From NCBI GenBank assembly GCA_963768655.1, contig CAVYIM010000004.1:480001-544000 (forward strand): a DNA stretch of 64,000 nt, in the 5' to 3' direction. The notes beneath the pieces were generated by a model. That model did not search any database. It saw only the letters and a list, made by a program, of their open reading frames with translations, and was not told where the DNA came from. Below, piece by piece: positions 39,965 through 64,000 of the stretch. The DNA comes from an uncultured Chloroflexia bacterium. Its GTDB lineage: Bacteria; Chloroflexota; Limnocylindria; Limnocylindrales; CSP1-4. The stretch's first letter is position 1; every line of letters starts with the position of its first letter. A program made the position numbers and the translations under genes.

Positions 39965-40013
39965 CGACTCTCCCAGCGCTCTTGCGGCCGAACACGGTCG
40001 GCCTCACGTGTAC

Positions 40014-41360: not shown

Positions 41361-41370
41361 CTCAGGCCTG

Positions 41371-41952: not shown

Positions 41953-41961
41953 CGTGGTCTC

Positions 41962-44187: not shown

Positions 44188-45917
44188 CAGAACAGCCTCC
44201 CGGCGTTGTTGAGGAGCTGGTCGACGATCGGGCCGAGGGCGAGCGCAGGGAAGAAGGTCAGCGCACCGACGATGATGATCACGCCAAGCAGCAGCCCGAC
44301 CCATATCGGTCCCGTCGTTGGGAAGGTGCCGAGCGACGGCGCGACGCGGCGCTTACCGGCCATGGAGCCGGCGATGGCCAGGATCGGCACCATCATCGCG
44401 TAGCGGCCCAGCATCATGGCGAATGCGCCGGTTACGTTGTAGAAGAGGGTGTTGCCCGACAGGCCGGCGAACGCGGAGCCGTTGTTGCCGGTCTGGCTCG
44501 AGAACGCATACAGGATCTCGCTGAAGCCGTGGGGGCCGCCGTTGAGCGGCCCGGCTTTGCCCGCCGCCGTGGCGGTTGCCACCGCTGTGAAGAAGAGGAT
44601 GCTGAAGGCCAGGAAGAGGACCACCAACATGGCCATCTTCATCTCGTAGGCCTCGATCTTCTTGCCGAGGAACTCCGGCGTCCGGCCGACCATCAGCCCG
44701 GCAATGAAGACGGCGATGATGGCGAACGTGAGGATCCCGTAGAGGCCGGCGCCGATGCCGCCCGGAGTGATCTCGCCGAGCTCGATGTTGAACAGCGGGA
44801 CCAGGCCACCGATCGGCAGGAAGCTGTCGTGCATGGCGTTCACCGCCCCGGTGCTCGTGCCGGTCGTGACCGTCGCGAACAGGCCGCTGGCGTCGGCCCC
44901 GAAGCGAGTCTCCTTGCCCTCCATGTTCCCGGCCGACTGATTGACTTCCTGGGCGACCGCCGCCGGAATCGAGGGGTTCGAGCGTTCCTCGCTCGACATC
45001 GCCACCAGCGAGCCTGCCGAGAGCACGATCAGCATTACCGCCAGGAGGGCCCAGCCCTGCCGGGCGTTGCCGGCCATGCGTCCGAACGTATTCGTGAGCG
45101 CGAATGGGATGATGAGGATCAGCAACATCTCGACCCAGTCCGAGAGCGTCGTGGGGTTCTCGAACGGATGGGCGGAGTTGGCGTTGAAGAAGCCGCCGCC
45201 GTTGTTGCCCAGCTCCTTGATGGCTTCCTGAGACGCGACCGGGCCGAGCGGGATCGTCTGCACGGCGCCCTGCAGCGTGTGGACGCTGATGGAGCCGGCG
45301 AAGGTCTGGATCACGCCCTGCGAGACGAGGAACAGCGCGGCAACGAATGAGATCGGCAGCAGGATGTAGAGAGTGCTGCGGGTGAGGTCGACCCAGAAGT
45401 TGCCGATCGTGGTGGCCGACCGCCGGACCAGGCCACGGGTCAGCGCGATCGCGACGGCGATGCCCGAGGCGGCCGAGGTGAAGTTGCGGACGGCGAGCCC
45501 GGCCATCTGGGTCAGGTACGTCATCGTCTGCTCGCCCGAGTAGTTCTGCCAGTTCGTGTTGGTGTCGAAGCTGACGGAGGTGTTGTAGGCGAGGTCAGGA
45601 GCCACGGGGCCGACCGGGACGCCACCCTGGCTCAGCGGCAGCGACGCCTGGAAGCGCTGCTGCAGGTAGAGGGCCAGGATGCAGATGAAGGAGAAGAGGA
45701 TCACCGACACCGCGTACGCGGTCCAGCGCTGCTCGACCTTCTCGTCGACGCGGAGGACCTTGTAGACGCCGCGCTCGACAGGACGAATGACCGGCGAGAG
45801 GAATACCCGTTCGCCCTCCATCACCTTGCGGATGTAGCCGCCGAGCGGGCGCGCCAGAAGGATGGCGACGGCGAAGAGGCTGACGGCCTGGAGCAGGCCC
45901 GCCGGCGAAGGGATCAT
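44187..45917 (-). CDS. kdpA: Potassium-transporting ATPase subunit A
   Basis: [51 protein letters not shown]. Confidence 0.97.
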
Positions 45918-48553: not shown

Positions 48554-49147
48554 GTGAGTCCCCGCCAAGCAGATACGCGCAAGCGCGCACTGGATGTCGC
48601 CCTCGAGCTCTTCGCCGAGCAGGGCTACGAGAAGACGTCGCTGCGGGAGATCGCCGAGCGACTCGACGTCACGAAGGCCGCGCTCTACTACCACTTCGCG
48701 TCCAAAGAGGCGCTCCTGGCCGGGATCGTAGACAGCCTGGTCGAGCCTGCAGACGAGCTCGTGGCCTGGAGCCAGACGCAGCCGCGCACGACCGAATTCC
48801 GCCAGGAATACTTGCGTCGGCTGGCTCAGCTACTCCAGGGCCAGTGGAGCCGCTGGATCAGCTTCGTGCAGCAGAACCAGCCGGCCCTGCGCGATCACGG
48901 CGAGGCCGGGCAGAAGATGCAGAGCCGCTTGCTCCTGCTCTGCGCTCCCATCATCGAACCCGACGCCGCTCTCCAGGATCAGCTGCGCTCGCTCCTCGGC
49001 CTGCTCGCTGTCTACCTCGGGAATCTCGCTCCCGCTTCGGCGCTGCTCCGATCACTTGGCTTCGAAGCTACGCCCGAGGAGCTGACCGCAGCTGCCATGG
49101 ACGTCGCACTCGAGCTCGTGGGCGAGCGAACTTCCCGACGGTCCTGA
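48554..49147 (+). CDS. TetR/AcrR family regulator
   Basis: ALELFAEQGYEKTSLREIAERLDVTKAALYYHFASKE. Confidence 0.95.
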   Translation: MSPRQADTRKRALDVALELFAEQGYEKTSLREIAERLDVTKAALYYHFASKEALLAGIVDSLVEPADELVAWSQTQPRTTEFRQEYLRRLAQLLQGQWSRWISFVQQNQPALRDHGEAGQKMQSRLLLLCAPIIEPDAALQDQLRSLLGLLAVYLGNLAPASALLRSLGFEATPEELTAAAMDVALELVGERTSRRS

Positions 49148-49303
49148 CGGCAGCGCGGCGGGCGTCCTTCCGTGTCGGCCCTCCATGGGGACCAGTCGTC
49201 GCTCCAGTCGGTGCGGGACCGCGACGGGTAGGCTGAACCTACCTGCTCCCCGTTCGGCGCCATCTGGTACCCGCGTCTGGTTCAGCGAATGAAGCCGACT
49301 GGG

Positions 49304-49330
49304 TGCAACTTTCGACCGGCGTCAGACGTA
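49304..49330 (+). promoter_or_regulatory. ECF-type promoter
   Basis: TGCAAC-N17-CGTA upstream of the 49353 gene. Confidence 0.55.
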
Positions 49331-49352
49331 CAGTTGGTGGGCGGCAAGCCCC

Positions 49353-49955
49353 TTGGATGCGGACAGAGCACCTGCCCCGAGCGACGCGGAAAGCATCCAT
49401 GCCGCCGACCGGCGGCGCCATGGATGGCCTCTCGGCCGGCTCGCTCTGACTGTGGGCGACCGCGGCGTGGCAAAGCTGGCGATTTTACTGGGGGCACTCG
49501 CGGTGGCGGCCGTTCTGCTCGGTGCCGTCGTGGTGATCCAGGGGGTCGGCAGGCAACCGGGCTCCCCGCCGGGAGCGGCGCCGTCACCCCAGGCGTCGGC
49601 AACAGCCACGCCGTCACCTCTGCCCAGCGGTGGGATTTCACAGACGATCGCAATTGCCCTTGCCCGTGGCAACGCCGGCATGATGGTCCAAGGGTTCGTC
49701 AGCGCCGTCGCCGGTCCATTCTCGGAACTCAACGAAGGCATCGGACCAGGCGCGGACATGGCCCCAACCCGGCTCGTTTGGGCCGTCACGCTCTCGGGAT
49801 ACGCCCAGCCCTGCCCGCCCAACGGAGCTACGTGTGAGCCGCCGAGGGTCGGCACCGTCACCTACTACTTCGACTACTTCACCGGCGCCTTCCTTGCCAG
49901 CTCCGGCTCATTCCCTGCGCCGCAGGCGACCGTCGCCATCACGGCGCGAGATTAG
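49353..49955 (+). CDS. Hypothetical membrane-anchored extracytoplasmic protein
   Basis: TM, Pro/Thr linker, LVWAVTLSG..CPP..C..YFDYFTGAFL; start uncertain. Confidence 0.7.
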   Translation: MDADRAPAPSDAESIHAADRRRHGWPLGRLALTVGDRGVAKLAILLGALAVAAVLLGAVVVIQGVGRQPGSPPGAAPSPQASATATPSPLPSGGISQTIAIALARGNAGMMVQGFVSAVAGPFSELNEGIGPGADMAPTRLVWAVTLSGYAQPCPPNGATCEPPRVGTVTYYFDYFTGAFLASSGSFPAPQATVAITARD

Positions 49956-49971
49956 TCGGGGCGAGAGGATT
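49955..49971 (-). repeat. att-like core resembling tRNA-Pro 3' end
   Basis: Reverse complement AATCCTCTCGCCCCGAC; identical 15-mer at 62870. Confidence 0.75.
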
Positions 49972-50091
49972 GAGGCCGAGATAACAAGCTAACCGTCGTA
50001 TGTCACGCGACCACGCTCTATCACGCCGGCCGGAGCTGATGGCAGAGCCCGCAGTCGCCCGACCGAGGCAGTCGGGTTCAAGCACCGCCCA

Positions 50092-51356
50092 TCAGGGTTT
50101 GAACAGTTCGGCGGAAGAGAAGGCTTCCTGACCGTCGCCTATGCCTCCCGCGATCAAGACGGTGCCGTCGGGCAGCAGGGTAGCCGTCTGATCGCTCCGG
50201 GCCTCGATCATCGAGCCGATCATGTGAAAGCCATTGGCCGGGTCGAACACTCCGGCCAACCGGACGGCGGCTCCAGAGAGGTCGCGACCTCCCTCGAAGA
50301 GGACGCGCCCATCGGGGAGAGGTGTGGCGGTGGAAGCGGACCACGCGAGCGGGGGGGAGATCGACCCGGACATTGTGACCGAATTTGTCGCGGGATCGAA
50401 CGTGACCAGGTAGTCGTAGGCACTCAAGAGTACGCGGCCATCCTTGAGCAGCGTAGCCGTGTCGGGTGCTCCCCAGGTGGTCGGGATCACGGACGGGAGC
50501 GCGAATGAGATCGAGGTGGACTTGGCGCGGCGGTGTCGTACAGATCCGCTCTTGGGACGCTGTCATCGCCGATGACCAGGATCTGGCCATTGGGCAGGAG
50601 AGTCGCCGTGGTGCCCCACATAACCGCTCGGCAGCGAGCCATCGAGCGTGAACTTGCCGGTCGCCGGGTCGTACATCTCAGCTCGGGTTTCACCGCCATT
50701 GAGCATCAGGACGCGCCCGTCAGGCAGGAAGTATCGCGCTGGCATCGGCGTGACCAACGGACATCGATCCCGTGGGCGTGAACTTGCCCGTCGCCGGGTC
50801 GTACAGCTCGGCCGTAACGCAAGCGGGTCTGTTCCCGCCGTCACAGGACCGGGGGTGCCCCACTCTTCCGAAGGCAGCCATAGCCACCGGCGATCAGGAC
50901 GCGGCCATCCGCCAGCAGCGTGGCAGTGGCATGGGAGCGAGCCGCCCTCATAGAGCCCGTGGGGGTGAACTTGCCGGTGCTCGTGTTGTAGGACAGCTCT
51001 GCGGACGAGACGACCTCGTCAAACGACGCGGTCTGCACGTCGCCTCCCCCGGCGATGAGGACCTTGCCGTCCTGGAGCAGTGTGGCGGTGGCGTCCATGC
51101 GCGCCCCGTGCATGCTGCTGGTCACGACGAATGTCGGCGTCGGCGTAGGCGTGGGCGTGGGCTTGGGAGTGGGCGTGGCGATCCAGCTGGCGGTCGGGCT
51201 GGCGGTCGAGCTCGGGCTCAGCGAGGGCGACGCCGTACTACCCCCGCAGCCAACGACGGCCACGATAAGGACCAACCCGGCCAAAAGTCGCCCGTCGAAA
51301 GCTGCGACCCAGGTCGATCCGCGGACTGGCTCTCCACGCTCCGTCCCCTCTGTCAT
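50092..51356 (-). pseudogene. Kelch-repeat lipoprotein, multiple frameshifts
   Basis: Lipobox VVGC, (TP)n, kelch repeats spread over ORFs 50841, 50563, 50487, 50092. Confidence 0.8.
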
Positions 51357-51434
51357 CTGAACGCCTTCAGGATGACGTATCGATGGAGCGCCCGTGACGC
51401 CACGGAAGGTGGCCGCAGAACGGGAGACAGGAGG

Positions 51435-51775
51435 TGGTGGGGACGACTGGAAGTAGCGCCGGCCGAGATAACAAGCCAGCCGGCGGAGGTCACGAGCGGC
51501 CGCTGCGAGACGACTGCCCGGCCGCTGAGTATTGAGCGCGAGACGAGGGGGGAGCTGATGGCAGAGCCGTCGCGGCCCGACCCAGTGAGTTGAGTTCAGG
51601 CGCGGCCCGCCATGGATTGAACAGCTCCGCCGACGAGACGGCGCCATTCTGCCGGTCGATGCCGCCCGCGACTGTCTCCCGCTGTCCATGCGAACCACTT
51701 GCAGGATGACGCATAGAAGGATTGCACGTGAAGCCGGGGCAGGTGGCACGGCCCTGAGTGGTGGGGACGAGAGCA
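51435..51775 (-). repeat. Internally deleted duplicate of the kelch unit, with degenerate att-like cores at both ends
   Basis: GGCCGAGATAACAAGC and GGAGCTGATGGCAGAGCC shared with 49974-50050; kelch end VAGGID..SSAELFNP; 51699-51770 resembles 51366-51446; cores at 51435 and 51759. Confidence 0.7.
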
Positions 51776-52020
51776 CAGGAGCCTATCTCCCATTCGTCGC
51801 GTCGGCAAGGCGACCGGATTCGTTCCAGGTCTACCGTCTCTCGGCATCAGCCACAAGCTGACGGTGCAACCGCAGAAAACCGTTTGGGACCATCGGACCG
51901 CCTCGTACCACTAACAATCCCAAGACTCCGGAGGTAGGGTTCGGCTAGAGACTCGGCGTAGCCAATGGGTCGGTTGGGCCGTAGGTGACCATCCCAGTCC
52001 GAGTCGACAAGGGGTCGCGT

Positions 52021-52600
52021 GTGGAAGAATCTCAGTTCTGCACTCGTTGTGGCGCGCTTGCTGCGCATGAAGATGCGTTCTGCGGCAAATGCGGAACGCC
52101 TCTAGGTCCGAGGGATGCTAGCCAAGAAGTCATCTCCGGCAACGGGATCGATTGCCGCGACCGGAGGGTCATCGTCGAAGCGTTCGATCTCGTCGTGGGC
52201 GAAGCTCCTCCTGACGGCCTTGGTTGTGATCGCGGTTCTGGTCGGGCAGCAGTTGGCTACTACCAATTCGGACGTGGCGCAGCGACGCCGACACCGACGC
52301 CCACGCCGATGGCAACGATGAGCGACGCCGCCAAGCTTTGGTGCGCGGCTAACGACGACCCGACGGCGGGAGACGATATCGTGGCCGCTGCTGCCGAACA
52401 GCTAGGGATCAAGGTCCCGCCGGAGGTGGCGAACATAGAAGCGGCAATACTGACGCGGTCCCGTACCTCCGGAGCCGTGCCGGTCCCCGATGATGTCGCC
52501 GAGGCTTTCATCGAGTTCTACCGTAATGGTGGCTTCCAGACCTGGCGAGATTTCTCCCGAATACGCGCAGGCCTGCATGGCAGCGTTTGGCTTGCGCTGA
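52021..52600 (+). pseudogene. Zinc-ribbon membrane protein (frameshifted)
   Basis: FCTRCG..FCGKCG; TM segment KRSISSWAKLL.. lies in a shifted frame; (TP)n. Confidence 0.7.
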
Positions 52601-52664
52601 CGCTCGTTATGAGATCGCCGCTCGGAAGGCGTTCGCGCCGATGATTGCCTAGGGGGTTGCGGAG

Positions 52665-53357
52665 TTGGATGTATCACGGTTCTGCACTCGGTGTGGCGCG
52701 CCTGCGGCGCCTGAGAATGCGTTCTGTGGAAGGTGTGGCGCATCCGTGAGGCCCGGAGATGACGGGCCGCTGTCCGCTGCCCTAACGGCGCCTGTCGCTG
52801 TCGCCGGACGGACCGCCCCGAAACGGTCGATTCCGACGTGGGCGAAGATCCTAACCATTGGCGTGGTGATTGCGGCACTGGTTGGCGTTGGCTCTTACGG
52901 TTACTGCCAGTTAGGGCGCGGTGCCGCTTCGCCCAGCCCAACACAGCTGCCTACCGCAACGCCGTCACCAATTCCCACCGCCGCTCCCATGCCGACGCCA
53001 GATATTGAGATGGAGGCCGCAGCCACTCATGTGGCCGATGCGATCGACAGCATCGAGGGAATGCCGCCATTCGATGAGGCCGATGACACCGCGTGGGTTG
53101 CCTTAGTCGCGACTCTTGCTGGCTCAGAGGCCGACTGGATCGAGCAACAGCCGCCCCGAATTCAGGGTCAGGCCGTAATCGCTGATGCCCACGATCATCT
53201 GCGCCACCTGGCCTCCAGCCCCGAAGTCTGCCTGTACGCCACGGGAGCAACAGAAGCTGCCCTCGGCTTCTGTTGGGATCTGCATTACCAGCCTGACCTC
53301 GTGTATCTCAAGGGCATGCTGCCAAGCCTGAGCGAACTGGCCGCGTCCGGCACCTGA
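52665..53357 (+). CDS. Zinc-ribbon membrane protein
   Basis: FCTRCG..FCGRCG, KRSIPTWAKIL TM, Pro/Thr linker, helical external domain. Confidence 0.8.
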   Translation: MDVSRFCTRCGAPAAPENAFCGRCGASVRPGDDGPLSAALTAPVAVAGRTAPKRSIPTWAKILTIGVVIAALVGVGSYGYCQLGRGAASPSPTQLPTATPSPIPTAAPMPTPDIEMEAAATHVADAIDSIEGMPPFDEADDTAWVALVATLAGSEADWIEQQPPRIQGQAVIADAHDHLRHLASSPEVCLYATGATEAALGFCWDLHYQPDLVYLKGMLPSLSELAASGT

Positions 53358-53365
53358 TCATTGGT

Positions 53366-53771
53366 TCAGCTGCCGGAATTGCTTTCTTCGTCGACTCGGC
53401 CTTGGTGAGCTTGACCTCTAGGAGTCCGAAGTTCGTCTAGGAGACGTCCAAGCCCCCGATACGCGGCGAGCGTGCGCCGGAATGCGGGAAGGACGAGCGG
53501 CCGTGCAAGCGTGGCCGCTTCCGCCTTGAGGTCGATCCGAGCCAGCTCCGCGCTCGTCAGAGCCACCAGGACGGTGCGGACGACCAGCAAACCGAAAGAG
53601 TGCCAACTCGGCAAAGGCTTCGACGGTCTCCCGAACCGCGAGCAACAGGACGCCCGCGAGCGTTCCGAGCAACGCAACCCAGACCTGCCTGTTCGAGAAG
53701 AGGCGGCTCAGTCGGATCATGTCGTCAGCATTGCGAGCCCGGCGACGCCTCGGGCGGGTCTGGTCGAGCAT
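53366..53771 (-). pseudogene. Hypothetical two-TM protein (frameshifted)
   Basis: Hydrophobic N-half in ORF 53418 continues in ORF 53366 frame. Confidence 0.4.
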
Positions 53772-53940
53772 CGCCGACCCCGTGCGCCCGGGTGCATGGA
53801 GCAGCCCGAGAGTGAGTGCCTTCGACGTGATCTGGCCATCCGAGTTCCAGGCGTGTTCGATCGTCACGGTCAAACTGACGCCAGCCGAGCGGCTGTAAAA
53901 CCGTGGCCTACAGGAGCGTCGGCAGTCGTACCATGAACAA

Positions 53941-54381
53941 ATGCCCGACCCAATCGCCACTGCGCTAATCGCTGGCCTGAGCGCGGTTGTCGGCGGTCTC
54001 ATCGCAGCAATCGGCAAGCCGTGGGGCCAGGACTGGGTGGCTCGCCAGGCTGAGAAACGCGCCGCGCAAAGAGCACGCGAGGCCGAATACAGGGTGCGTC
54101 TCGAACGTGTGCTGCAACTCCTCGGAATAGTCTCGGTCGAAGGATGGCCCACGCCGGAACACGAGCGAGAAGGGCACGAGCTACCCGCGGCGGCTTACGC
54201 TGTCAACGACCAATTGCTGATTGATGCGGTGACCAGAATGTCGGGTTTCTCTCGCACTTCTACCGAATGGGCCGCCGCTCGTAACGCTGCCAACCGGCGG
54301 GTCGGCGAACTTCTGAGTAGCCAACTGTTGGTCCCCGACCCTTTGGTTCGCGCCAAACTTGGAACGAAACTCGACGAGTGA
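53941..54381 (+). CDS. Hypothetical protein with N-terminal TM helix
   Basis: Hydrophobic start then helical domain; GTGA overlap with HNH gene. Confidence 0.65.
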   Translation: MPDPIATALIAGLSAVVGGLIAAIGKPWGQDWVARQAEKRAAQRAREAEYRVRLERVLQLLGIVSVEGWPTPEHEREGHELPAAAYAVNDQLLIDAVTRMSGFSRTSTEWAAARNAANRRVGELLSSQLLVPDPLVRAKLGTKLDE

Positions 54382-54918
54382 TCGTGACCACGAGACAGCC
54401 GGCGCCTTTCGAAAGCTACCCAGAGGGCGGACGCATGCTCCTCAGACGGCCGAAGTCCGGGGACGGCTCTGCCCGCGGTGGCTATGGCCGCGATGTCCTC
54501 GTTTGGTGTGGGTTCAGGTGCGCTTACTGCGGGCTCGACATAGAGCAGTTCGAGGGCTGGCTGCAACTGTCGGTGGGACCACGTGATACCACGGCAGGCT
54601 AAGGTGCTCGGCTATCCGAAGGACTGGCTGCGGAACCAGATCAACACTGTTGCGTGCTGCCGCCCATGCAACGACTTGTACAACCGAGAACAGCCCGCCG
54701 AACCCGCCCCGGCCACGCTCGAGGAATTCCTTGAGATCCGTTACGCCGCATTCCGCCGCCGCAAGGCCCACATTCTCGAACGTCGCGAGGCTGAGCGTGT
54801 CAAGTTCGCGAATACGTCCGCGCAACGGGCGACGGCGCTTAGCGGACCTAGCCGGGCATCTGGCTCTCCGCCGCATTCGCTGCGTTCAGCCCGATGCAAC
54901 CGCCGATCTTCGCCCTGA
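54378..54918 (+). pseudogene. HNH endonuclease (frameshifted)
   Basis: CAYCG..LSV/DHVIP..NTVACCRPCN; one extra G in GTGGGAC breaks the frame. Confidence 0.8.
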
Positions 54919-55294
54919 TCTGGTTGACCGTGTCCAACATGAGCTGACCCTTGTGTCGGCTCGCAGCCAAGTCATCCTTGAGCATCGGAAACACGATATC
55001 GGCTTGCGCCATGCAGTCCTGATCGGTGCCTCCGTCGCCCTTACGGAGTTGTACGTCGTGCTTCTCCACGAAGTTATCGATGCCGGCGGAAAGAAGAACG
55101 ACCAGCAGCACCCGAGTCCAGGTGTCCCGACAGTCGCGCTTGCATGAAACGACCACGATCCACCGCTCGTCCCGGGGCGGATGCACCACTCCGTGCGCTT
55201 TCGGCAGCACAACATCGGCAGGGTCAACGGTGAAGACGTCACCTGGCCGGAGAACGGTACCTTCGGCTCCCGCCGCGCTATCTGCCGGCGCCAC
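54848..55294 (-). CDS. PemK/MazF-like toxin
   Basis: RPGDVFTVD..ERWIVVVS..VLLVVLLS..HDVQL..GG...CMAQADIVF..G.L. Confidence 0.7.
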   Translation of the reverse strand: MAPADSAAGAEGTVLRPGDVFTVDPADVVLPKAHGVVHPPRDERWIVVVSCKRDCRDTWTRVLLVVLLSAGIDNFVEKHDVQLRKGDGGTDQDCMAQADIVFPMLKDDLAASRHKGQLMLDTVNQIRAKIGGCIGLNAANAAESQMPG

Positions 55295-55904
55295 TGAGTG
55301 CGCGGTTCACGAACGGTGCCATCGCCGCCAGAGCGTCCTTCTGTTTGGCGACCCTGTCTGCAAGCTCTTGCTGTCGTTCTGGCGTGGCCGTTTCCGGCTC
55401 TTCTGCAATTGCCCTAGGGTCAGTCATACGGTGAAAGTCGATAGGCGTGTCGATGAGCTCGTGCCGCGACGACGCTCTTCGATTTCAATGAGCCGCATAG
55501 GTGTAGTGGCATACGCCAGCCGCTTCACCTCGTCATCGGTAAGTCGAGACGTCAGCGCCAAGATGCGTCGAGCACTTGGATCGCGTCCTCGCTGAGCTGA
55601 GGCTCGAACCTCGGAGCAGGCCCTCTGCGGACCTCGGCACTTCGCGGCCGGAGTTGGTTTGCCGCTTCTCGTCTTCGGTCTCGTGCCCCTTCATCTCGCC
55701 TAGCGATGGAAGCATCGCCTTCGTCATGGGCCCGTACTTCTCGCGGACCCAGGTGGCATCGGTGATCGTCCGCCCCGTCTCAAGGTAGTGCTCCAAGTCG
55801 GCAAGGTACAGGAGCTTGTGGAGCCGCGTCATGCGAACTGACTCCGTCCTCAGCACGATGGCCAGGATTGCTTGTCTGAAGGGGGTCGACTCGGGCGCAG
55901 TCAC
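55278..55904 (-). pseudogene. Panacea (DUF4065/SocA) antitoxin, frameshifted
   Basis: TRLHKLLYLADLEHY..G.TIT...W....YGP; continuation ..VKRLAYATTPM.. to TAG at 55278 after ~3 shifts. Confidence 0.8.
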
Positions 55905-55941
55905 GCCTATATCGTAGCTGCCCCGCGCGAAGCTGCAACGG

Positions 55942-57530
55942 TCAATACTGCAAGGGCGTTCTAGACTCCCAGCGCGAAAGGGCGGTCGCCGACTGGCTTC
56001 CCCGGTCCATCCCTTTGAGACTATTCCGAGTCGTAGTCCTCTGGGGCCTCGGCAGCACGGCCAACAACTGCAGCTCTTCGGGCCTCGCGGCCGCCGCCCT
56101 CCCGGCTCGGCGGTGCGTCACGTTGGCACCGGTGACGTGCGGATAATCGACGCCCTGGCCGCCGAGCAACTGGCTGATCGTTCGAAGCTGAAGGCGGGGA
56201 TGTTTGCCCCAGGGCGACTCAAACCCGGCTTCTGCCGCTTCCGCTCGCATTCCCGTACTGGGCTCCTCGAATGAGAGCAGGACGCCGATCTCCGCCCGTT
56301 CGCGTTCAACGACTCCTCGCAAGTCGCGGACATAGTTCGGGACCAAGTGTCCGGCCTTGACGCTGAACACAATCTGACGAGTCTCGGAGCCGCCCTCATG
56401 GAAGTAGAGGCGGCCGTCGATCCCCTTGTCGCCGCCCTTCTTGTCGCTGCCGGCGATTCTGGCACCGACGAGCCCGAGAGCCCAAGCCTGGAACTGGAAC
56501 GGGTCATCTTTGGCGAGCACGCGCGCGTCGTCGACTGTCGTCGGCTCGCCGATCACGCGGTAGGTCTTGGCGATCTCCGGGCCGTAGCGATCGACGAGGC
56601 GGTGCTTGATCAGGCCGATGGAAAGATGAGTGATGTCGATGCCGATCCAACGGCGGCCGAGGGCTTGCGCCGCGTCCACCGTCGTTCCGCAGCCACAGAA
56701 CGGGTCGAGCACTTCGTCGCCAGGGTCGCTCGCCATCTCGATTATCCGGGCCAATAGGGCGACGGGTTTCTGCGTCGGATAGCCGAGCTTCTCGCGGCTG
56801 GCCGGTTGGAGCATTGGCATGCGCCACACGTCGTCAGCCATCCGGTGGGTTCGCTCTCTATGTACTGGACGTGCCCGTCCTCGCCCTTCGCGTTGACGAG
56901 CCTCTGCGTCTCGCCGTCCCAGGCGACGTTTGAGCATCTTCGCCGGGCCGCCCTCGCGAGCTTCCATGACCGGGTGAAACATGAACTCGCGGCTCTTCGA
57001 GTACCAGAAGATCAAGTCGTGGTCGGAGGCCAGCCGATGAATGTTGCCTTGCATCTTGTTGAAGTAGTGCCAGACGATCTCGTTCCGGAAGGCGGCCGGT
57101 CCAAAGACAGCATCGAGGAGCACCTTCAGGTAGTGGCTGGCGGACGGGTCGCAGTGGAGATACAGCTCCCGGTCGATTTCAACACTCGCCGCAGTTCGAC
57201 CAGCCGAGGTGCCATCATCGACAGGTAGGCGAGCATGTCGTTATCGCCTAGCACGGTCCGGAATGCCTGCATCGGCCAACGAACCTGACCGCCGCCGGAC
57301 TCGACCACCTCTTCATAGGCGGCTGGGCTGAACGTTCCATTCCACGTATCCTCGAATGCCTTGATCTGGGCGGCGGACCCCGTCGCCATGTTCCGCGAAC
57401 AGCACGTTGTAGTTCTGGTCCGACTTGAACGGCGGGTCAAGATAGACGAGATCGACGGACTCGTCGCGACGTATCGCTGGAGAACGTCGAGGTTGTCGCC
57501 GTAATAGAGGAGGTTCGGTTCCCCGCTCAT
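55942..57530 (-). pseudogene. N4/N6 DNA methyltransferase with C-terminal Mrr-like domain, frameshifted
   Basis: LYYGDNL, YLDPPF (shifted frame), NEIVW, YPTQKP, LDPFCGCGTT, DKGIDG..SVKAG. Confidence 0.85.
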
Positions 57531-57696
57531 CCGTCTCTCCAGCAGTTCGCCCGGTGCCAGGCGGGCCGCCTGGCCGTGTCCATCCTAGTCGACCCGTAGC
57601 CCGCGACGCAGATCCCTTGGGCGCGCCGACTAAACGACCGGCTGGCCGCGAGGGGGAACGGCCGGCCGGTCGGACACGTGGGGTAGGGTAGACGCC

Positions 57697-58726
57697 TCAG
57701 CCGTCGGTCGGGCGGCGAGACGGCAATTCGGGCCCCTCGGTGGCCGCCCTCGGCCGCCGCCCGTCTGCGCTGTGGGCCCAGCGGCAACGCTCCCCGCACC
57801 AGCGCTGGCCGCGCCGCTTTGGTCGGAACGTGTTGCCGCAGTGACCGCAGGGCCGCGGCGCCCGCCAGCTCGTCTGTAGCAGCGATCCGACAGAGGTGAT
57901 GGCCGGCCAGCTCGCCTCATCGAGCGTCTTCTGGTAGGCGGTGGCCAGCGGTCCGACGGCCAGGTCGAACCCTGCAGGCGCATGCCGTTCTCGGTCGGGG
58001 CCACGTGGGCAGAGACCTTGAGCAGCCGCTGCATGGGCCCGGCGAGGACGTAGCTCAGGCAGTACAGGGCCTGGATGTAGGCTCCGGCGCCTTTCCAGCT
58101 CGCGTCGGTCGGAACAGCCACGCCATACAGCCGAGCGAGGTTCGTTCCGGACATGGCCTGGTGATCAGGGTCGCGCTGGACATCGGTGAGAAAGCCCGGC
58201 TGGTAGTTCATCTGGCGCTCGACCTCGGCCCGAAGCTCGGCGCCGCGTAGCTCGCGGATCGCGCGGAGAATTGCCCGAGCCTGGGCGAAGTAGCGCAGGG
58301 CGAGCCCGATCTCTTCCACGCTCTCGCCCCGTTCCCGCCGGGCGGCTCGGACGCCAACAAATCCTTCGCTCTCACCCACGCGAGGATGGACGCTGCGTCG
58401 CCCGCTCCGAGGGCCACCAGCTCATCGGATAGGCCGGCACGATCCGACGGTCTCCAGATGCGGGCCGGCCCGTGCAGTTCCGGGGTGGTATCCACGATCC
58501 GACGGACCCACAACTCGCCCGAGGCGAGCTTGTACTCGCCGCGGCGCAGCCGGGTCCAGTTGCCGCGGGTGTCGGGCTGGGCGTACTTCGGCTCGCCGGC
58601 GAGTCGGAGCACCGGCCCTGGGTCCATGACGAACCTATCTACGGCGTCCTCGACGTCGTAGCTCTCCCCTACGGTCCAGCTCGTGGCGTCCAGCGCCGCG
58701 TCCGTCCCGGCCCTTGTCTCCGCCAT
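57697..58726 (-). pseudogene. Hypothetical protein with C-terminal CGNR-like zinc finger, frameshifted
   Basis: ORFs 58208 and 57630 join; third frame gives PCGHCGNTF..QRWCGERCRW. Confidence 0.55.
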
Positions 58727-58787
58727 GGCGTCCCTCGCTTAGTCCACGTGTTCGATTTCGTCCATGGTACCGGAGATAGTTCGCTCT

Positions 58788-59018
58788 ATGACTAGCAACG
58801 ATCGCTCCCAACGACCAACCGGACTCAACCTCAAGTTCGCCCGCCTCGCCCGTGGCGTCCAGGCGCGGGCGATCGCGGCCTCGCTCGGGGTCTCGCCGCA
58901 GCGGGTCTCGACCATCGAAGCCTCCCTCCACCCCAGCCCCGAGATGGCCGCGCGCTACCTGGCTGCGCTCGATGCCCTCGCCCCGGCGGGCGACCCGGAA
59001 GGGGGCCGCCGCCCATGA
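58788..59018 (+). CDS. XRE-type helix-turn-helix protein
   Basis: LKFARLARGV....IAASLGVSPQRVSTIE. Confidence 0.8.
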   Translation: MTSNDRSQRPTGLNLKFARLARGVQARAIAASLGVSPQRVSTIEASLHPSPEMAARYLAALDALAPAGDPEGGRRP

Positions 59019-59209
59019 ACAGCAGGCGCTGTCTCTCCTGTGGCGACCAGCTCGACATCACGAGCCGGTCGGATCGGCGGACCTGCTCGGATCTCTGCCG
59101 AAAGCGCAAGTCGCTGGCGGGGCAAGCTCAGCGTCGCGCACTGCGCCTCAGAGCCCACGCCCCGCGGCGTGGAGGCCGCCGAAGGTCCACTGGCTTCCTC
59201 GGGCGCTAA
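59015..59209 (+). CDS. Small zinc-finger protein
   Basis: CLSCG..RSDRRTCSDLCRKR; ATGA overlap. Confidence 0.6.
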   Translation: MNSRRCLSCGDQLDITSRSDRRTCSDLCRKRKSLAGQAQRRALRLRAHAPRRGGRRRSTGFLGR

Positions 59210-59233
59210 CTGTGAAGGAAGGGGCTCACAGCT

Positions 59234-60550
59234 GTGACAGACCCCGCGCACGCCCCGGAGCCGATGGGCGCGATCACTGGGCGGCTTGGTTTCCCGGAGC
59301 GAGCCATCGCGCCGGACCAGATACGGCCGGAGGTGGTCATCACGCACCTCTCGACGGTGAAGCCATTGCCACTCGAATGGTTGTGGCAAGGCTACATTCC
59401 GGCGGGGATGATCACGATCATCGACGGCGACCCAGGTCTGGGCAAGAGCATGCTGACGCTCGATCTGGTGGCCAAGGTGACTCGCGGATTGCCGATGCCG
59501 GGGAGCCGGCCTGAGTCCGCCGGAAGGCCCAGAGGCGCCGTCCTGCTCTCAGCTGAAGACGACCTCGCGCACACCATAGTCCCGCGGCTCATCGCTGCCG
59601 GGGCCGACCTGGACCGCGTGGTGGTCGTGAGTCTGCGGGAGCGCGACGGCACCTCCCGGGAGCCCATCATTACTCCGGCCGACCTTGAGGCAGTCGAGAA
59701 GGCCATCGTCGAGGTCGACGCCGCGATCGTCATCATCGATCCCCTGGTGGCCTACTTGCCAGCCACGGCCAGTGCCAATCGCGACCAGGACGTGCGTTGC
59801 ACCCTGGCACCCCTGGCGGACCTCGCCGAGAGAACCGGGGCCGCGGTCGTCGTGGTGCGGCATCTGCGCAAGGCGGCCGCCGACAACGCGCTGTACCGAG
59901 GCGGAGGATCGATCGCCTTCATCGGTGCCGCCCGGGTTGGGTTGCTCGTGGCTCTCGACCCCGACGACGAAACCGAACAGCGGCGCATCCTCGCCAGCCT
60001 CAAGAGCAACGTCGGACCCAAGCCGCCGAGACTCATCTTCACCGTGGAAGTCCATCCGGGCCAGCCTCAGCCCCGAATTGTCTGGCGTGGCGAGACCGAC
60101 CATCGCGCCGACGATCTCCTGGTCCCCATGGACCGTGGCGAACGGAGCGCCATCGACGACGCCAAGGAGTTCCTGATCGAGCTGCTCGCGGGCGGGCCGG
60201 TGCCGTCCCGCGAGGTCGAAAGGCAGGGCTTGGAGGCCGCCATCTCCAAGGCCAGCCTTGGGCGGGCCAAGACGCTTCTGAGGGTCAAGTCGACCAGACC
60301 CGAGGGCTTCACCGGGCCGTGGTTCTGGGCGCTGCCCGAGACGTACATGCGCAACGAAGGCCGTACATCCTCACCTCTCGAAGTTGAGGACGTACGGGCA
60401 GGCCTGAGGAGGTACGGGGCCGCCAGCACCGGCACGGCCGACGCCGCGGCGGACGGGCCGAGTGCCCGGTGGCATTGCCCGGCCGGGTCCGGGCACGCCC
60501 CGGCGACCCACCCCGACGGCACGATCTACTGCGGGACGTGCCATCCATGA
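59234..60550 (+). CDS. AAA_25/RepA-like ATPase (replication helicase-type)
   Basis: LEWLW.GYIP.G, GDPGLGKS, SAED, IIDP, VRHLRK, GGS, KSNVG. Confidence 0.88.
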   Translation: MTDPAHAPEPMGAITGRLGFPERAIAPDQIRPEVVITHLSTVKPLPLEWLWQGYIPAGMITIIDGDPGLGKSMLTLDLVAKVTRGLPMPGSRPESAGRPRGAVLLSAEDDLAHTIVPRLIAAGADLDRVVVVSLRERDGTSREPIITPADLEAVEKAIVEVDAAIVIIDPLVAYLPATASANRDQDVRCTLAPLADLAERTGAAVVVVRHLRKAAADNALYRGGGSIAFIGAARVGLLVALDPDDETEQRRILASLKSNVGPKPPRLIFTVEVHPGQPQPRIVWRGETDHRADDLLVPMDRGERSAIDDAKEFLIELLAGGPVPSREVERQGLEAAISKASLGRAKTLLRVKSTRPEGFTGPWFWALPETYMRNEGRTSSPLEVEDVRAGLRRYGAASTGTADAAADGPSARWHCPAGSGHAPATHPDGTIYCGTCHP

Positions 60551-61242
60551 GCAGCATCCGCCGGGCTGCGCCGGGTTTCGATCCAGCCAGAGACGACTCT
60601 TTCGTGCTGCCGACCCGCCAGCAGGCCGAAGATGCGGGCGCAAATGCCCTCGCCGCTCTCCTGCGCCGGGGCATCGAAAGGCACCTACGGGAACCCGGGG
60701 CCACATTCGATGACGCGCTTCGAGAAGCGGCCCGCGATGTCCTCCGAGGCTCGCTCGACGAGGCCATCAGGGGCCAGCGGGGCGGGTACTGCATGCGCGC
60801 GCCGACCGACCCGGTCCTCTATGCGATCGGACGTCTCGGCGCCGCTCTCGTGGAGCTGAGCTACACAGTGCGCAATCCGGCCCGCGCCGTTGCGGAAGCG
60901 GCCCGGCTGTTCGGCGAGTATTCCCGCCGCTCCGTCGCCATCAACATCGCTATCAACGCCGCCAGCACCGCCGCCAAGGCCGGGTCCACCCCGACCGATG
61001 CCCCGGACAGGCCCCTCGACCAACCGGCAAGGTCCGGGTCCGACCGCACCGACACCGCCGTCCTCGCCGGCAACCGCCCGGCAGAGCCCGTGTCCGGCCC
61101 GGCCGGGACCGCGGCCCTGGCCGGCAATCGGCCCTCAAAGCCCGAGTCCAGGTCCAGACGGGCCGCTGATGCTGTGCTCTCGATCACCAACGTCGCAGAG
61201 CCCGTGCCCAGCCGGGAAGCTCGGCCCGGGAGCCGGCGATGA
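60547..61242 (+). CDS. Hypothetical protein
   Basis: ATGA-coupled to the AAA gene; tail with repeated LAGNRP. Confidence 0.55.
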   Translation: MSSIRRAAPGFDPARDDSFVLPTRQQAEDAGANALAALLRRGIERHLREPGATFDDALREAARDVLRGSLDEAIRGQRGGYCMRAPTDPVLYAIGRLGAALVELSYTVRNPARAVAEAARLFGEYSRRSVAINIAINAASTAAKAGSTPTDAPDRPLDQPARSGSDRTDTAVLAGNRPAEPVSGPAGTAALAGNRPSKPESRSRRAADAVLSITNVAEPVPSREARPGSRR

Positions 61243-61391
61243 ACCGCCCGCGCCCGCCGGCACAGACCCCGGGCTCGTCCACCTCATCGGGCCGTGCCCG
61301 GACCATCGAGCCCGGTGATCCGCTGGTGCGGGCCCTGGCGGTATGCGTCCGCCAGGCCTATGCGCGGCGTCGCACCGGCAGAACGGACTAG
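61239..61391 (+). CDS. 50-aa hypothetical protein upstream of recombinase
   Basis: ATGA-coupled; MNRPRP..GDPLVRALAVCVRQAYARRRTGRTD*. Confidence 0.5.
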   Translation: MNRPRPPAQTPGSSTSSGRARTIEPGDPLVRALAVCVRQAYARRRTGRTD

Positions 61392-61412
61392 CGGAACGGA
61401 TGGCGTCGCGTT

Positions 61413-62908
61413 ATGACTAGCGTCATGCACCAGCTACCCCGCTTCCTGGACCAGATAGCCGGTCTGCGGGTGGCCCGCTGGCTCCGGGAATCCACGGTGG
61501 GCCAGTGGGACAACTGGGGGCCCGACTCTCAGCGCGAGCTTCAGGACCGGACCATCGCCCGTCACGGCCTCATCGATACCGGCCTCGTCTGGCAGAGCGC
61601 CAAGTCGGGCCGGACCGTGTACCAGAGCATCGAGTTCGGGGCCAGAGCGCCGCCGCGAAAGCCGGCAAGTTCGACATCCTGCTGGTCGGGTATGTCTCTC
61701 GGTTCCAGCGGAACCTCAAACAGACCCTGATCGCCGTCGACGAGCTTCATGCCCTCGGGGTTGCCGTCGTCTTCTGCGACGAGCGGATCGTCTCCTCGGA
61801 CCCCGAGCGCTGGGATGAGCTGGTCCGCGAGGCCCACGAGGCCGAGTCCTACAGTCGCAAGCTCGGCCGCCGGATCGGCGAAGGCCTCGCCGCCAAACGG
61901 CGCCGCCTGGGCGAACCCGGTGGCCAGCCCTCGTATGGATACATCCGGACCGGCAAGCCGCCGGTATTGGAGCCGGTCTCGGCCGAGCTGGAGCGGGTCA
62001 GGGCCGCGTTCGCCGCCGCTGCCGAGGGCATGACCGACCGCGAGGTCTCCGAGCGGGTCGGCCTCCCGTTCTACACCGTCCGGCACATCCTGACCAACCC
62101 GGTCTATGCCGGGCGCCTGCGGGACGGGACCCCGACCCGGGTCCCAGCGGTCATCGATCAACACACCTGGGACGCCGTCCAGCTCGCCCGGAGCCGGTTC
62201 AGCCGCCGGCATCCCGGCCGGCCCACGACCCGGCGTCCCTATGCGCTCTCCATGCTCCACTGCGCCGCCTGCGGCCGGCACCTAATCGGCCAGGCCGCCC
62301 GCTACCGCCACACCTTCCCGTGTCCCGAATGGCTCGGCGCCGCCCGGCCCGCACCGCGGGCTTTCCACAACTCGACCGACCATCGCCACAAGGGCGTGAG
62401 CTATCCCGCGGACTCGTATGAGAACTTGGTCCGCCAGGCCCTCGCTCACGTCAGCGCCAACGCCGAGCTGGCCGCCGTCGTCGTCGCGCGGCTCGCCGAA
62501 GACGAGACCGCACCCGATCCCGTCGCCCTGGCCCGCATCGAGCGTGACCGCGAAGCCGCCATGGCCCGCTACCGCCGCGACCGGGACACGGCCGCCCTGG
62601 AGGCGACCATGAGGTCGCTCGATCAGGAGGAGGCGACGGCCAGGGCCGCGCATACCGACGGGCTGACGTCAGAGGAGGCGATCGAGTCGCTGCGCGAGCT
62701 GCCGAAGCTCTGGGACGACGCCGAACCGTCGGGCCGCAAGCTCCTGGCCGAGGCTCTGTTCGAGCGGATCGATGTCCTGGCAGCCCGCAAGGTGAGGCTG
62801 CACCCGAGCGCATCTGCCAAGGCTCAGGGGTGGGACATTGCCTGGAATGGGGCTCGATTGGTTGTTATGGTCGGGGCGAGAGGAGTAGCGCCGACACCAT
62901 GCGGGTGA
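61413..62908 (+). CDS. Large serine recombinase (one frameshift near 61645)
   Basis: WLRES catalytic Ser, SGR, VSRFQRN, PSYGY, ILTNPVYAG, PAVID..W, LHCAACG zinc ribbon. Confidence 0.88.
62868..62884 (-). repeat. att-like core resembling tRNA-Pro 3' end including CCA
   Basis: Reverse complement TCCTCTCGCCCCGACCA; lies within the last codons of the recombinase. Confidence 0.75.
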
Positions 62909-63081
62909 TCGTTCGGGTCGGTGTCTCGACCGAAGGGCGTAGCCAACGGGCTGGCCTGAGGCTGCACGTCCTGCGAGCCTGGTCCCCAGCCCTCATCCGT
63001 CGGCCCAGCTGCCGCGTATCCATGGCAGGGCAATCGACGTGGCGCAAGCCATCCGGGCTCAGCGGCTAGGGGGAGGCGCAC

Positions 63082-63543
63082 ATGCGTTGCAGGGCGCTCG
63101 CGTCGCTGCTGTTGCTGGCTCTCGTTCCCGCGGCGTGCGCTCCAGGCACCGCCACGCCAGCTCCCCCGAGCCTGTCGGACGCCGTCCGCACGGCGAAGCT
63201 GGCCCTGCGCGTCTCGATGGCCAGGGAGCTGCCCTGGTATGCGGCCCTGATCCTTGGCGACGACGGGATGCCGGCGGTGGAGATCGCGCAAGGCGACGTG
63301 CTGTATGTGCCCATTGATCCGAGCCGTCTCAACCCCAGCGCTGGCGAGGTCGCCAACGCAGGGTCCTCGGCGGTGGCGGTCGGGGACATATGTTTCACGA
63401 TTGCCGGCGAATACCTGCCAGTTGGCGAGTCCGCCGACTCCCTGGGCATCGAGTGGGTTTTCATGCGCGCGGCCGGGAGCACCATCTACGAGTGCCCCGT
63501 GCATCCTCCCGGCATAACCATCCTCCCATCGCAGCGCCCATGA
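63082..63543 (+). CDS. Hypothetical lipoprotein
   Basis: RBS GGAGG, signal peptide ending PAAC. Confidence 0.7.
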   Translation: MRCRALASLLLLALVPAACAPGTATPAPPSLSDAVRTAKLALRVSMARELPWYAALILGDDGMPAVEIAQGDVLYVPIDPSRLNPSAGEVANAGSSAVAVGDICFTIAGEYLPVGESADSLGIEWVFMRAAGSTIYECPVHPPGITILPSQRP

Positions 63544-64000
63544 CCAGACGAGAGGGGATCGTGAAGAGGTCACCCTGGCGTAGGCGTCTTGGGGCTCGCG
63601 TCTACCGCGATGGTAGCTTGGGCAGGAGTTGCGCCGACACTTCACGGGTGAAGGTGCGGAGCGGAGCTGAAGCCGACCCTGAGCCCGCTTGCGCCATTCA
63701 ACCGGTCGTCGCTGTCGCCTGAGTGAAGCCTGTGTCCGGGGCGACAAGCGACGGCCCGCGTGCTCGCCCGAACGTCCAGCAGCCGGGGGAGCGGGACGTT
63801 TTCGGCTCAGGGTCCGTTGGTATGATCGCTCGGTGGAACCACTTAACCAACCATCCAACCTGCCCGGCTCTCAATGGCCGCCCCCTTCGATGGGCAGAAT
63901 GCCTGGACGCCAAGTGTGGCTCTATGCCGGGGTCGCTGTAGTCGCGTTCCTACTGGGGCTCCTATCCGTCTGGATAGGCCTTAGGATCGCGGTTGCGGCC

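Follow-up and report, generated by a model that had tools for sequence, protein, structure and literature searches.

A probable accretion array of integrative elements at a tRNA-Pro(CGG) locus of an uncultured Chloroflexia bacterium and its association with a clade of large serine recombinases

The stretch of DNA analysed here, hereafter called the window, comprises 64,000 nucleotides of an uncultured Chloroflexia bacterium of the Limnocylindrales (contig CAVYIM010000004.1, positions 480,001 to 544,000) and carries a gene for a large serine recombinase (LSR) whose last codons cross one of several related short sequences, the cores, that are derived from the 3' end of a tRNA. The region from 49246 to about 67058, which runs slightly past the right end of the window, is probably an accretion array at a tRNA-Pro(CGG) hot spot that was built by a clade of LSRs using the core as attachment (att) site. 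In the mechanism that we propose, these enzymes would recognize the 17-nt core, that is, the 3' end of tRNA-Pro(CGG), and each element of about 10-14 kb would carry an arm termed P' at one end and, at the other, an LSR gene reading through the core. Integration would set the LSR end beside the tRNA body and leave a hairpin, a core, and a P' arm at the far end, and repeated integrations would push older elements outward. Two inner cores (sites S2 and S3) would bound modules for kelch-repeat lipoproteins, and further small units lacking a recombinase would follow to the right. The LSR is the presumed catalyst of these events.

Four cores had been noted in a preliminary description of the window, and a motif scan together with a hand count places all of them, after small corrections of the coordinates, on the plus strand. 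Site S4 (62868-62884) is the exact 17-mer TGGTCGGGGCGAGAGGA, S1 (49953-49969) reads TAGTCGGGGCGAGAGGA and agrees at 16 of 17 positions (its 15-mer from 49955 being exact), and S3 (51759-51775) is degenerate with 14 of 17 positions in the motif scan. Site S2 (51435-51451), at the upstream end of a kelch module, is degenerate as well, with 13 of 17 positions counted by hand, and is absent from the window scan at three or fewer mismatches. The shuffling of flanks between sites that had been described is likewise real, at slightly shifted positions: GTAGCGCC is present at 51453-51460 and again at 62885-62892, GGCCGAGATAACAAGC at 51461-51476 and again at 49974-49989, and on the plus strand at 51453-51477 the sequence reads GTAGCGCC followed by a second copy of the distal P' arm, GGCCGAGATAACAAGCC. 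Within the window, the degenerate matches are by themselves weak evidence and not significant, with three core matches at three or fewer mismatches as compared to 0.78 expected, and 6 of 100 shuffles reaching three. Across the genome, the core motif is far over-represented: the 16-mer GGTCGGGGCGAGAGGA has eight exact and four one-mismatch copies, as against no exact and zero to one one-mismatch copies for control patterns (the reversed motif and two scrambles), and the 15-mer at one mismatch or fewer gives 15 matches versus 1 for its reversed control. The core and its arms represent no known RNA family, since an Rfam scan (E<=1) of nine core-bearing loci gave nothing at the core and returned only an unrelated tRNA-His and two sub-threshold chance matches. 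The earlier description of an array of cores thus stands as such, but its extent had been drawn too short, as at least five further degenerate sites follow to the right (63612, 64313, 65423, 66420, and 67037, the last four beyond base 64000 on the same contig), where they carry a conserved arm of 35-45 nt (..GCCGACACT.TACGGGTGAAGGTGCGG).

Read as its reverse complement, the core matches the 17 nt at the 3' end of the genus's tRNA-Pro(CGG) at 17 of 17 positions, which bears out the derivation from a tRNA-Pro that had previously been put forward. A 77-nt tRNA-Pro(CGG) ending in the 25-mer GGTTCAAATCCTCTCGCCCCGACCA was called by ARAGORN in relatives at 4 of 14 loci scanned (L025, L026, L030, and L032), the other ten holding a tRNA fragment only. 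A core copy on contig C3 of the window's own genome extends the match into the canonical T-loop and gives this same 25-mer, which is found at three or fewer mismatches in 50 of 51 genomes of the genus, mostly in several copies, while its reversed control is found in none. The two proline tRNAs assembled in the window's genome (UGG and GGG) have only 11 nt in common with the core. ARAGORN, run on the window and on the whole genome, called no tRNA at any window core, in agreement with the preliminary description, and did not find an intact tRNA-Pro(CGG) in this assembly (88.6 % complete), the best match being a 25-nt fragment. One 'tRNA-Pro(cgg)' was called at C3:247196-247264; this doubtful, 69-nt candidate is coding-like and unrelated to the core or to the tRNA-Pro(CGG) of the genus, and was rejected as probably false, which leaves the assembly without a tRNA-Pro(CGG).

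That the window locus is the native site of this tRNA is indicated by its left flank. A gene for a TetR-family regulator (48554-49147, plus strand; Pfam TetR_N, 2e-19) belongs to an MFS-TetR flank that is common to relatives up to 49245, and this TetR flank is 85-91 % identical in six relatives up to the same position, where homology ends. Its last part, at 49226-49245, is the hairpin GGGTAGG-CTGAA-CCTACC(TG), which natively lies immediately downstream of tRNA-Pro(CGG) and represents the outer arm of the empty site. In the relative G046, an intact tRNA-Pro(CGG) is directly followed by the hairpin and then by a flank matching window positions 49150-49245, with no insert. Because this represents an empty site, everything from 49246 rightward in the window is taken to be inserted. 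In another relative, G018, the TetR flank leads into the hairpin, a core, and an arm homologous to window positions 62885-62917, followed by three more sites on the same strand at a spacing of 1.2-2 kb. The island also has a foreign composition, its G+C content being lower (0.62-0.65 over 51600-57400 versus about 0.70 at 40000-44000).

On the right-hand side, the intact tRNA that had been predicted there is absent, and the array instead ends in a truncated tRNA-like stretch beside a response-regulator gene. The last site is followed by GGAGCCTCCGACCTC, which matches the tRNA T-arm at 13 of 14 positions, and then by the 3' end of the response-regulator gene. The same junction of core, 15 nt of tRNA T-arm, and response-regulator 3' end is present in three relatives (G046:C231, G042:C105, and G012:C39), and no intact tRNA was found at the junction in the window's genome or in any of these three. 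The stretch 67059-67073 may be a conserved truncated tRNA fragment or a mimic of the arm and not a freshly decayed gene. G046 has both this junction (C231) and, on another contig, an intact tRNA-Pro beside the TetR-side hairpin. A DNA search with the right flank (62893-63990) against 40 relatives matched only the 40-nt arm motif, so that no empty site can be reconstructed from this side. Furthermore, no homology was found between the response-regulator flank and the tRNA-proximal flank of contig C6 of the relative G001 (G001:C6), which implies that the upstream neighbour of the tRNA is not conserved across the genus.

The LSR gene extends from 61413 to 62908 on the plus strand (Pfam Resolvase and Recombinase). 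Compared to three homologues, the window copy has a 1-nt deletion near 61640 that falls in the catalytic domain and splits the gene into two open reading frames (ORFs; 61413-61730 and 61505-62908). An intact paralogue on C3 shares 79 % nucleotide identity with it. PF00239 (Resolvase) scores 51.7 bits in this paralogue and 37.7 bits in the window copy (cut-off 23.3), PF07508 (Recombinase) is marginal with 21.8 bits in the window copy and 17.5 bits in the C3 copy (cut-off 21.1), and the zinc-ribbon profile PF13408 gave no match in the copies tested. In an alignment of 19 LSR sequences, R26, S28, Q32, R98, and R101 as well as three cysteines (285, 288, and 305) are invariant. An AlphaFold model (pLDDT, i. 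e., predicted local distance difference test, 75) aligns over about 530-610 columns with the full-length serine integrases 9y66, 9dxh, 9iu2 (Bxb1), and 9rah (PhiC31) at E values of 7e-14 to 1e-11 (1e-14 to 1e-11 for the serine integrases matched overall), with low TM-scores of 0.2-0.35 as expected for flexible multidomain chains. Judged by sequence and model, these features of the catalytic and C-terminal domains mark the product as an LSR. The residues from the core onward lie in a tail of pLDDT <50 whose length is set by the neighbouring DNA. As the reading frame crosses the crossover region into this disordered tail, integration would swap the last residues of the protein, and a frame running through the crossover region is an uncommon arrangement for this enzyme class. 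No tyrosine recombinase (PF00589) was found in C4:529-547 kb, where the LSR is the only recombinase gene.

The tie between recombinase and core that had been suggested for the window extends to its homologues. In the close set taken from the genome collection (L039-L054, 43-90 % identity; L055 left out), a core lies at the 3' end of the LSR ORF in 16 of 16 loci, and in four of them (L041, L048, L051, and L053) it adjoins a tRNA-Pro(CGG) called by ARAGORN. A core 20-390 nt ahead of the ORF end is present in 16 of 20 distant homologues from the genus (30-51 % identity), exact in 15 and with a single mismatch in one, and eight of these 16 then run into tRNA sequence, as read by eye; of the four that lack a core, three belong to a 42 % subfamily and the remaining locus is truncated by the end of its contig. 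The close and distant counts are not independent, since they were drawn from overlapping collections. The arm just outside the core varies by LSR subfamily (GGTTGTTAT, GAGCTTGTTAT, TAGTACTTAT, GTGGGAAT, and others), and LSR homologues at E<=1e-30 occur in 30 of the 51 genomes of the genus. The pattern points to a lineage-specific LSR clade of at least four subfamilies (30-90 % identity) that is dedicated to a single tRNA 3' end. With a core equal to the tRNA 3' end and LSR ends abutting the tRNA in 4 + 8 loci, the elements can be classified, by these features, as tRNA-targeting integrative elements.

Both ends of such an element can be read directly. The P' arm TTGAGGCCGAGATAACAAGC (49970-49989, plus strand) is the element-side arm and the inverted-repeat partner of the recombinase-end arm GATTGGTTGTTA(T) at 62856-62867 (plus strand); its sequence looks like a decayed imitation of the tRNA T-arm. 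The recombinase-end arm is identical or near-identical in 15 of 15 close homologues, the dyad having been read from the sequence. Together, the arms flank the core as an imperfect inverted repeat (TTGTTAT-GG-TCGG ... CCGA-G-ATAACAA, obtained in the same manner), the tRNA itself supplies GGTCGG-19 nt-CCGACC, and both dyads centre near GGA at the T-loop edge of the core. Sites are alike to the left of this GGA point and diverge to its right, and crossover would presumably take place there. Beyond S4 follows, at 62885-62917 (plus strand), the arm of the next unit, GTAGCGCCGACACCATGCGGGTGATCGTTCGGG, which belongs to the 'GCCGACAC...GGGTGA' arm family and is homologous to the TetR-side arm of G018 and to arms at C3:689807, C7:60119, and L039.

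In five of five close copies, the P' arm CTTGAGGCCGAGATAACAAG lies 10-13.8 kb upstream of the LSR. The contig G001:C6 holds an 81-kb same-strand array that ends in an intact tRNA and contains three full LSR copies in tandem, each with CTTGAGGCCGAGATAACAAG 11.8-13.8 kb upstream. Its sites are, in order, hairpin, core, and P' (29), P' (722), an LSR end (13838), a further site (39232), hairpin, core, and P' (43069), an LSR end (54832), core and P' (68798), and an LSR end with the tRNA (81008). For the C3 paralogue, P' (526359) and the LSR end (516313) are 10 kb apart, and in the window the P' arms at 49970 and 51461 are 12.9 and 11.4 kb from the LSR end (62867). The window and the G001 elements have a backbone in common (56635-59237 and 61222-62917), and the cargo behind P' differs. 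As the LSR ends at a core and P' lies 10-13.8 kb upstream, S1 and S4 are the two junctions of one 12.9-kb stretch. This would be one LSR element with kelch cargo and pseudo-sites in its interior or, in two parts, a kelch module of 1.5 kb standing before an 11.4-kb element with its own P' at 51461. A 693-bp P'-bounded unit stands before the LSR element's own P' in G001, parallel to the two-part layout of the window. The outer cores had been regarded as punctuation between cassettes of an integron-like system. This does not hold: the outer cores are junctions of attL and attR type of a recombinase-bearing stretch with the same layout as in four other copies, and the LSR sits on the mobile element itself and not on a fixed platform.

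Small modules for surface proteins that are bounded by sites, as had been supposed, do exist. Modules of the type P'-kelch-core' are located at 49953-51451, C3:688273-689822, C5:159655-158200, and C6:99784, and other kelch modules carry a core-like site at the position homologous to S2 (C3:689807, two mismatches to the 16-mer). The C3 module lies precisely between a vapBC-like unit and another arm. An internally deleted kelch unit in the window (51478-51758, minus strand), comprising only the 3' end of the gene and its upstream region, is 87 % identical over 51460-51635 to C6:99804-99980 and only about 74 % identical over 51551-51671 to 50032-50153. Since it is nearer to the copy on C6 than to its neighbour, the inner kelch copies did not arise by simple local tandem duplication, in line with the preliminary description. 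At ten P'-type loci of relatives, the cargo side was free of kelch genes in every case, kelch repeats being present at one locus on the opposite side, and no kelch gene was found in 90 kb of G001:C6, which together show that P' is not a kelch-specific arm. Kelch-repeat lipoproteins form a large paralogous family in this genome (C5:43082-47931 and about 13 other loci), and most of the roughly 13 loci are not associated with att sites. The three tandem copies at C5:43082-47931, two of them identical, have a period of 1737 bp and no att sites at their joints.

A recent duplication bounded by sites is provided by unit E7 (C4:546438-547058), which is 98.4 % identical over 621 bp to C7:60121-59502. 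Identity begins at the boundary between core and arm and stops just past the unit's own core, with different left-hand cores and different neighbours throughout, a pattern as expected for insertion with crossover at the edge of the core. A vapBC-like module (C3:687511-688288, about 780 bp, with a PIN domain and a promoter-like start) is conserved at 84-89 % identity across at least six species (including L071-L075) and has no flanks in common in any pairing of six genomes. Its hairpin and core are followed by a different arm in five of five genomes with a core, no core being detected in the sixth (L074). Across the units, a hairpin stands beside the core in some only. Small modules without a recombinase thus look mobile, and the units at 49953-51451, 62885-63628, and onward fit, as far as their layout goes, the structural definition of a passive att-flanked module of the type of the cis-mobilizable elements (CIMEs). 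The cargo between cores differs between genomes when the loci of relatives are compared, as had been anticipated. The small modules may have been moved in trans by the LSR rather than being deletion remnants, a suggestion to be placed between doubtful and not far short of an even chance, with deletion remnants and homologous exchange taking up the remaining probability.

Several findings weigh against an LSR-built accretion array or against the mobility of its small units. The window LSR carries a 1-nt deletion, and this copy is either dead or wrongly assembled. Sites occur without an LSR homologue at E<=1e-30 in 21 of the 51 genomes of the genus, many of these metagenome-assembled genomes (MAGs) being incomplete. 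Textbook LSRs do not integrate again at hybrid junction sites. Since a first integration leaves precisely such a hybrid junction on the tRNA side, tandem stacking would need relaxed specificity or another route. Moreover, core-bearing junctions are also present at 10 or more non-tRNA loci of the genome, which a simple hot-spot model leaves unexplained, and the left-most unit, E0 (49247-49952), has no core on its left. Among the small units, cores are degenerate, outer arms lack the TTGTTAT motif of the LSR end, and the left end of the vapBC-like unit is not at a site in four of six genomes. A weaker core-like motif upstream of kelch paralogues is not next to any att arm. As kelch paralogues without att arms carry this motif, S2 and S3 could in part be family sequence.

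The small units could alternatively be stumps of full LSR elements, left behind when deletions ran from a core-like sequence inside the element to a flanking core, and themselves immobile, a possibility that we take seriously, if tentatively. The kelch modules sit exactly at the position of the first cargo gene, just behind P'. Degeneracy is far greater in the small units' cores than in those beside LSR genes, and both the outer arms without the LSR-end motif and the 21 of 51 genomes with sites and no detected LSR would likewise suit remnants. tRNA islands with remnants of degenerated elements and partial tRNAs are indeed on record (10.1101/2020.12.28.424599, in the passages cited here). However, remnants would not account for E7, which is 98.4 % identical at two loci, has both its breakpoints at site boundaries, and is differently flanked in the two, so that the unit itself must have moved or been converted recently. 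Likewise difficult to explain are the four P'-kelch modules, all trimmed at the same upstream core-like site, and the 693-bp unit before the P' of the LSR element in G001, which parallels the window. At the other extreme, the small units, with their genes for kelch and other lipoproteins, small membrane proteins, and a vapBC-like pair, might be true gene cassettes, each with a tRNA-mimic arm and a core of its own, that the LSRs of the clade move in trans at any core-bearing junction, which we consider somewhat unlikely. If this were true, an uncultured lineage that is widespread in soil and peat would possess an analogue of the integron that is driven by a serine recombinase and reshuffles genes of the cell surface, its cassettes occupying the tRNA-Pro locus as well as more than ten secondary loci in each genome.

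It is improbable that cores and arms spread without the action of a site-specific recombinase on the small units, through ordinary homologous recombination, gene conversion, or tandem duplication between short sequences that resemble each other. Many units are flanked by arms of 35-50 nt with 85-90 % identity that might provide the homology needed, and plain tandem duplication without att sites is seen in the three kelch copies at C5:43082-47931. Yet the breakpoints of E7 lie at the core/arm boundary on both sides and not inside shared arms, its right-hand core moves along with it whereas the left-hand ones are different, and the deleted kelch unit resembles its neighbour (about 74 %) less than it does a copy on another contig (87 %).

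Even less plausible, and in our view very unlikely, is a strict integron-like platform, in which a resident serine recombinase would capture promoterless cassettes at one primary tRNA-derived site and express them. Small single-gene units bounded by related sites do stand beside a recombinase gene, and their content varies between genomes. The recombinase, however, lies inside a 10-14-kb mobile element with two ends of its own that recurs in tandem (three in the 81-kb array), units are found on both sides of this element, their genes point both ways, the kelch module carries its own conserved upstream region, and the array contains no tyrosine integrase of the IntI type. The integron-like system that had been proposed can hence not be upheld, since neither an integrase of the integron type nor attI, a common promoter, or a uniform orientation of the cassettes is present. 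Finally, although duplication of tRNA 3' ends is typical of tyrosine integrases and the genome has nine regions with Phage_integrase matches (ten in all), it is barely conceivable that a tyrosine integrase built the arrays with the serine recombinase as mere cargo, as C4:529-547 kb contains none of these regions, 32 of 36 homologues examined have the core within the end of the LSR ORF (12 of the 32 adjoining tRNA-Pro sequence), and the arm beside the core changes with the LSR subfamily.

An accretion array of LSR elements, as favoured here, invites comparison with known systems. In SCCmec, the large serine recombinases Ccr act at a shared core of about 15-18 bp at the 3' end of rlmH, and composite tandem arrays as well as recombinase-less pseudo-elements occur. 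The window shares with it an LSR, an unusually long core in the 3' end of a conserved gene, cores that punctuate tandem arrays, and recombinase-less members. It differs in phylum and in its LSR gene, which occupies the extreme end of the element and continues across the core, and the target is tRNA-Pro(CGG), so that the array, lacking integration at the 3' end of rlmH, would not be of the SCC type. CIMEs and the accretion and mobilization of streptococcal integrative and conjugative (ICEs) or integrative and mobilizable elements (IMEs) have been defined by experiment and depend on tyrosine integrases. The likeness lies in att-flanked recombinase-less units in tandem with an element that supplies the enzyme, trans-mobilization being a presumption for the window. 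In phiRv1/REP13E12 of Mycobacterium tuberculosis, an LSR has a target present in several genome copies, a repeated protein-coding element; a multi-copy LSR target is thus common to both, but the target there is not tRNA-derived and there are no cassette arrays. With integrons, the window shares arrays of small, mostly single-gene units between related sites and a content that varies between genomes, whereas IntI and an attI/Pc platform are missing, orientation is mixed, and the recombinase is on a mobile unit. By integrase type, platform, and cassette form, it is therefore not an integron; the system works as an accretion of integrative elements and att-flanked modules and not as an integron platform.

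Closer parallels in terms of the target are the tycheposons of Prochlorococcus tRNA islands, which are described as lying back to back with partial tRNA copies in between, newer elements pushing older ones inward (10.1101/2020.12.28.424599). Of 937 such elements, 27 carry a large serine and 910 a tyrosine recombinase (10.1101/2020.12.28.424599). As far as the cited passages go, both systems feature site-specific integration at tRNAs, degenerate remnants, partial tRNAs, and replication genes on the elements; tycheposons mostly use tyrosine recombinases over several tRNAs, while here one LSR clade, with an ORF overlapping the core, is linked to one tRNA. Integration of serine recombinases into tRNA genes has been called rare, the passages in question naming Mycobacterium AICEs (actinomycete integrative and conjugative elements) in tRNA-Leu and the phage phiRSM in tRNA-Ser (PMC3218068). 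These are likewise serine-recombinase insertions into tRNA genes, with a different tRNA and host phylum, and the same passages contain no arrays of small modules. Literature searches for Limnocylindrales recombinases and for serine integrases with tRNA-Pro, the latter judged by title or abstract, yielded nothing on this system.

The locus appears to be a main exchange route for surface lipoproteins, membrane proteins, and toxin-antitoxin and restriction-modification genes, which matters for Ca. Limnocylindrales-like Chloroflexota, as these are uncultured and abundant in MAG sets from peat and soil. Should the small modules move in trans, this would amount to an integron-like cassette economy run by a serine recombinase. 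In addition, the genomes show both att arms directly and thus offer ready natural triplets of recombinase, attP, and attB for specificity studies and tool development.

The cargo itself is diverse. Unit E0 (49247-49952, plus strand) encodes a membrane-anchored protein of 200 amino acids (49353-49955), identified by its ORF and a transmembrane stretch; it has no Pfam match and a partial paralogue at C3:591497-591729 (78 %). At the left joint of E0, homology to relatives ends 5 nt before the position of the core in G018, and this joint was hence made by a deletion or a different kind of event. The following kelch-repeat lipoprotein gene (50078-51357, minus strand; Pfam Kelch_4, 3.4e-8, lipobox, tblastn) is broken by frameshifts in the assembly and is 83-88 % identical at the nucleotide level to the three tandem copies at C5:43082-47931. 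Further cargo comprises two zinc-ribbon membrane-type ORFs (51985-53357, plus strand; weak Pfam match to Zn_Ribbon_1), a SocA/Panacea-domain antitoxin-like ORF (55533-55904, minus strand; PF13274, 6.2e-9), and an N6/N4 DNA methylase fused to an Mrr-type nuclease domain, which is split into two ORFs (55942-57530, minus strand; N6_N4_Mtase 6e-33, NA-iREase1, Mrr_cat) and partly shared with the G001 elements. The backbone at 57630-59018, with an ORF of 249 amino acids (minus strand) and an HTH_3 regulator (58764-59018, plus strand; 4.7e-7), is 64-69 % identical at the nucleotide level to its counterparts at the same positions of two G001:C6 elements. An AAA_25 (RepA/DnaB-like) ATPase (59234-60550, plus strand; Pfam AAA_25, 9e-37) is likely the replication module, and no recognizable conjugation gene was found among the element ORFs scanned with Pfam. 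The kelch (50078-51776), methylase-nuclease (55942-57530), and recombinase (61413-62908) genes are each broken by frameshifts, which reflect either decay of the island or indel errors of the assembly.

To the right of the LSR element, unit E4 encodes a lipoprotein of 153 amino acids (63082-63543, plus strand) with a signal peptide and lipobox, a G+C content at third codon positions of 0.82, and no Pfam match. It is followed at 63612-63664 (plus strand) by site S5, a degenerate core GGTAGCTTGGGCAGGAG with a conserved arm that is 85-89 % identical to C4:546438-546484 and C7:60076-60122. The next cargo gene, in unit E5 (63689-64000, plus strand), encodes a membrane protein of 202 amino acids, runs past the window end to 64297, and is a paralogue of E7 (67 % at the nucleotide level). 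In all, two lipoproteins and two paralogous membrane proteins are encoded in the right-hand units, and the array reaches to about 67058.

A gene-less module of about 175 bp, made up of a core, GTCGGGCC.AGGCTAACCCGCTCGTCGGGGATCTGGATCCC... and a second core-like site, is present in five copies of 82-91 % identity (C2:55289-55465, C3:516313-516138, C8:96110, C6:188401, and, in window numbering, 65423-65600). One copy lies 147 nt downstream of a tRNA-His, and the arm is also found in the relatives L042 and L098. C7:57000-76900 (L067) represents a second mobile region with a canonical LSR of 580 amino acids (Resolvase, Recombinase, and Zn_ribbon_recom), a tyrosine recombinase, a ParB-methylase fusion, an AAA_25 protein, an IS256-like transposase, the 98.4 % copy of E7, and a core with P' at 75361. 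KdpB and KdpA genes are located to the left of the island (41962-45917) and genes for a response regulator and a histidine kinase to its right (67080-69868 in window numbering), so that the island, together with the MFS and TetR genes, may separate the kdp transporter from a kdpDE-like pair.

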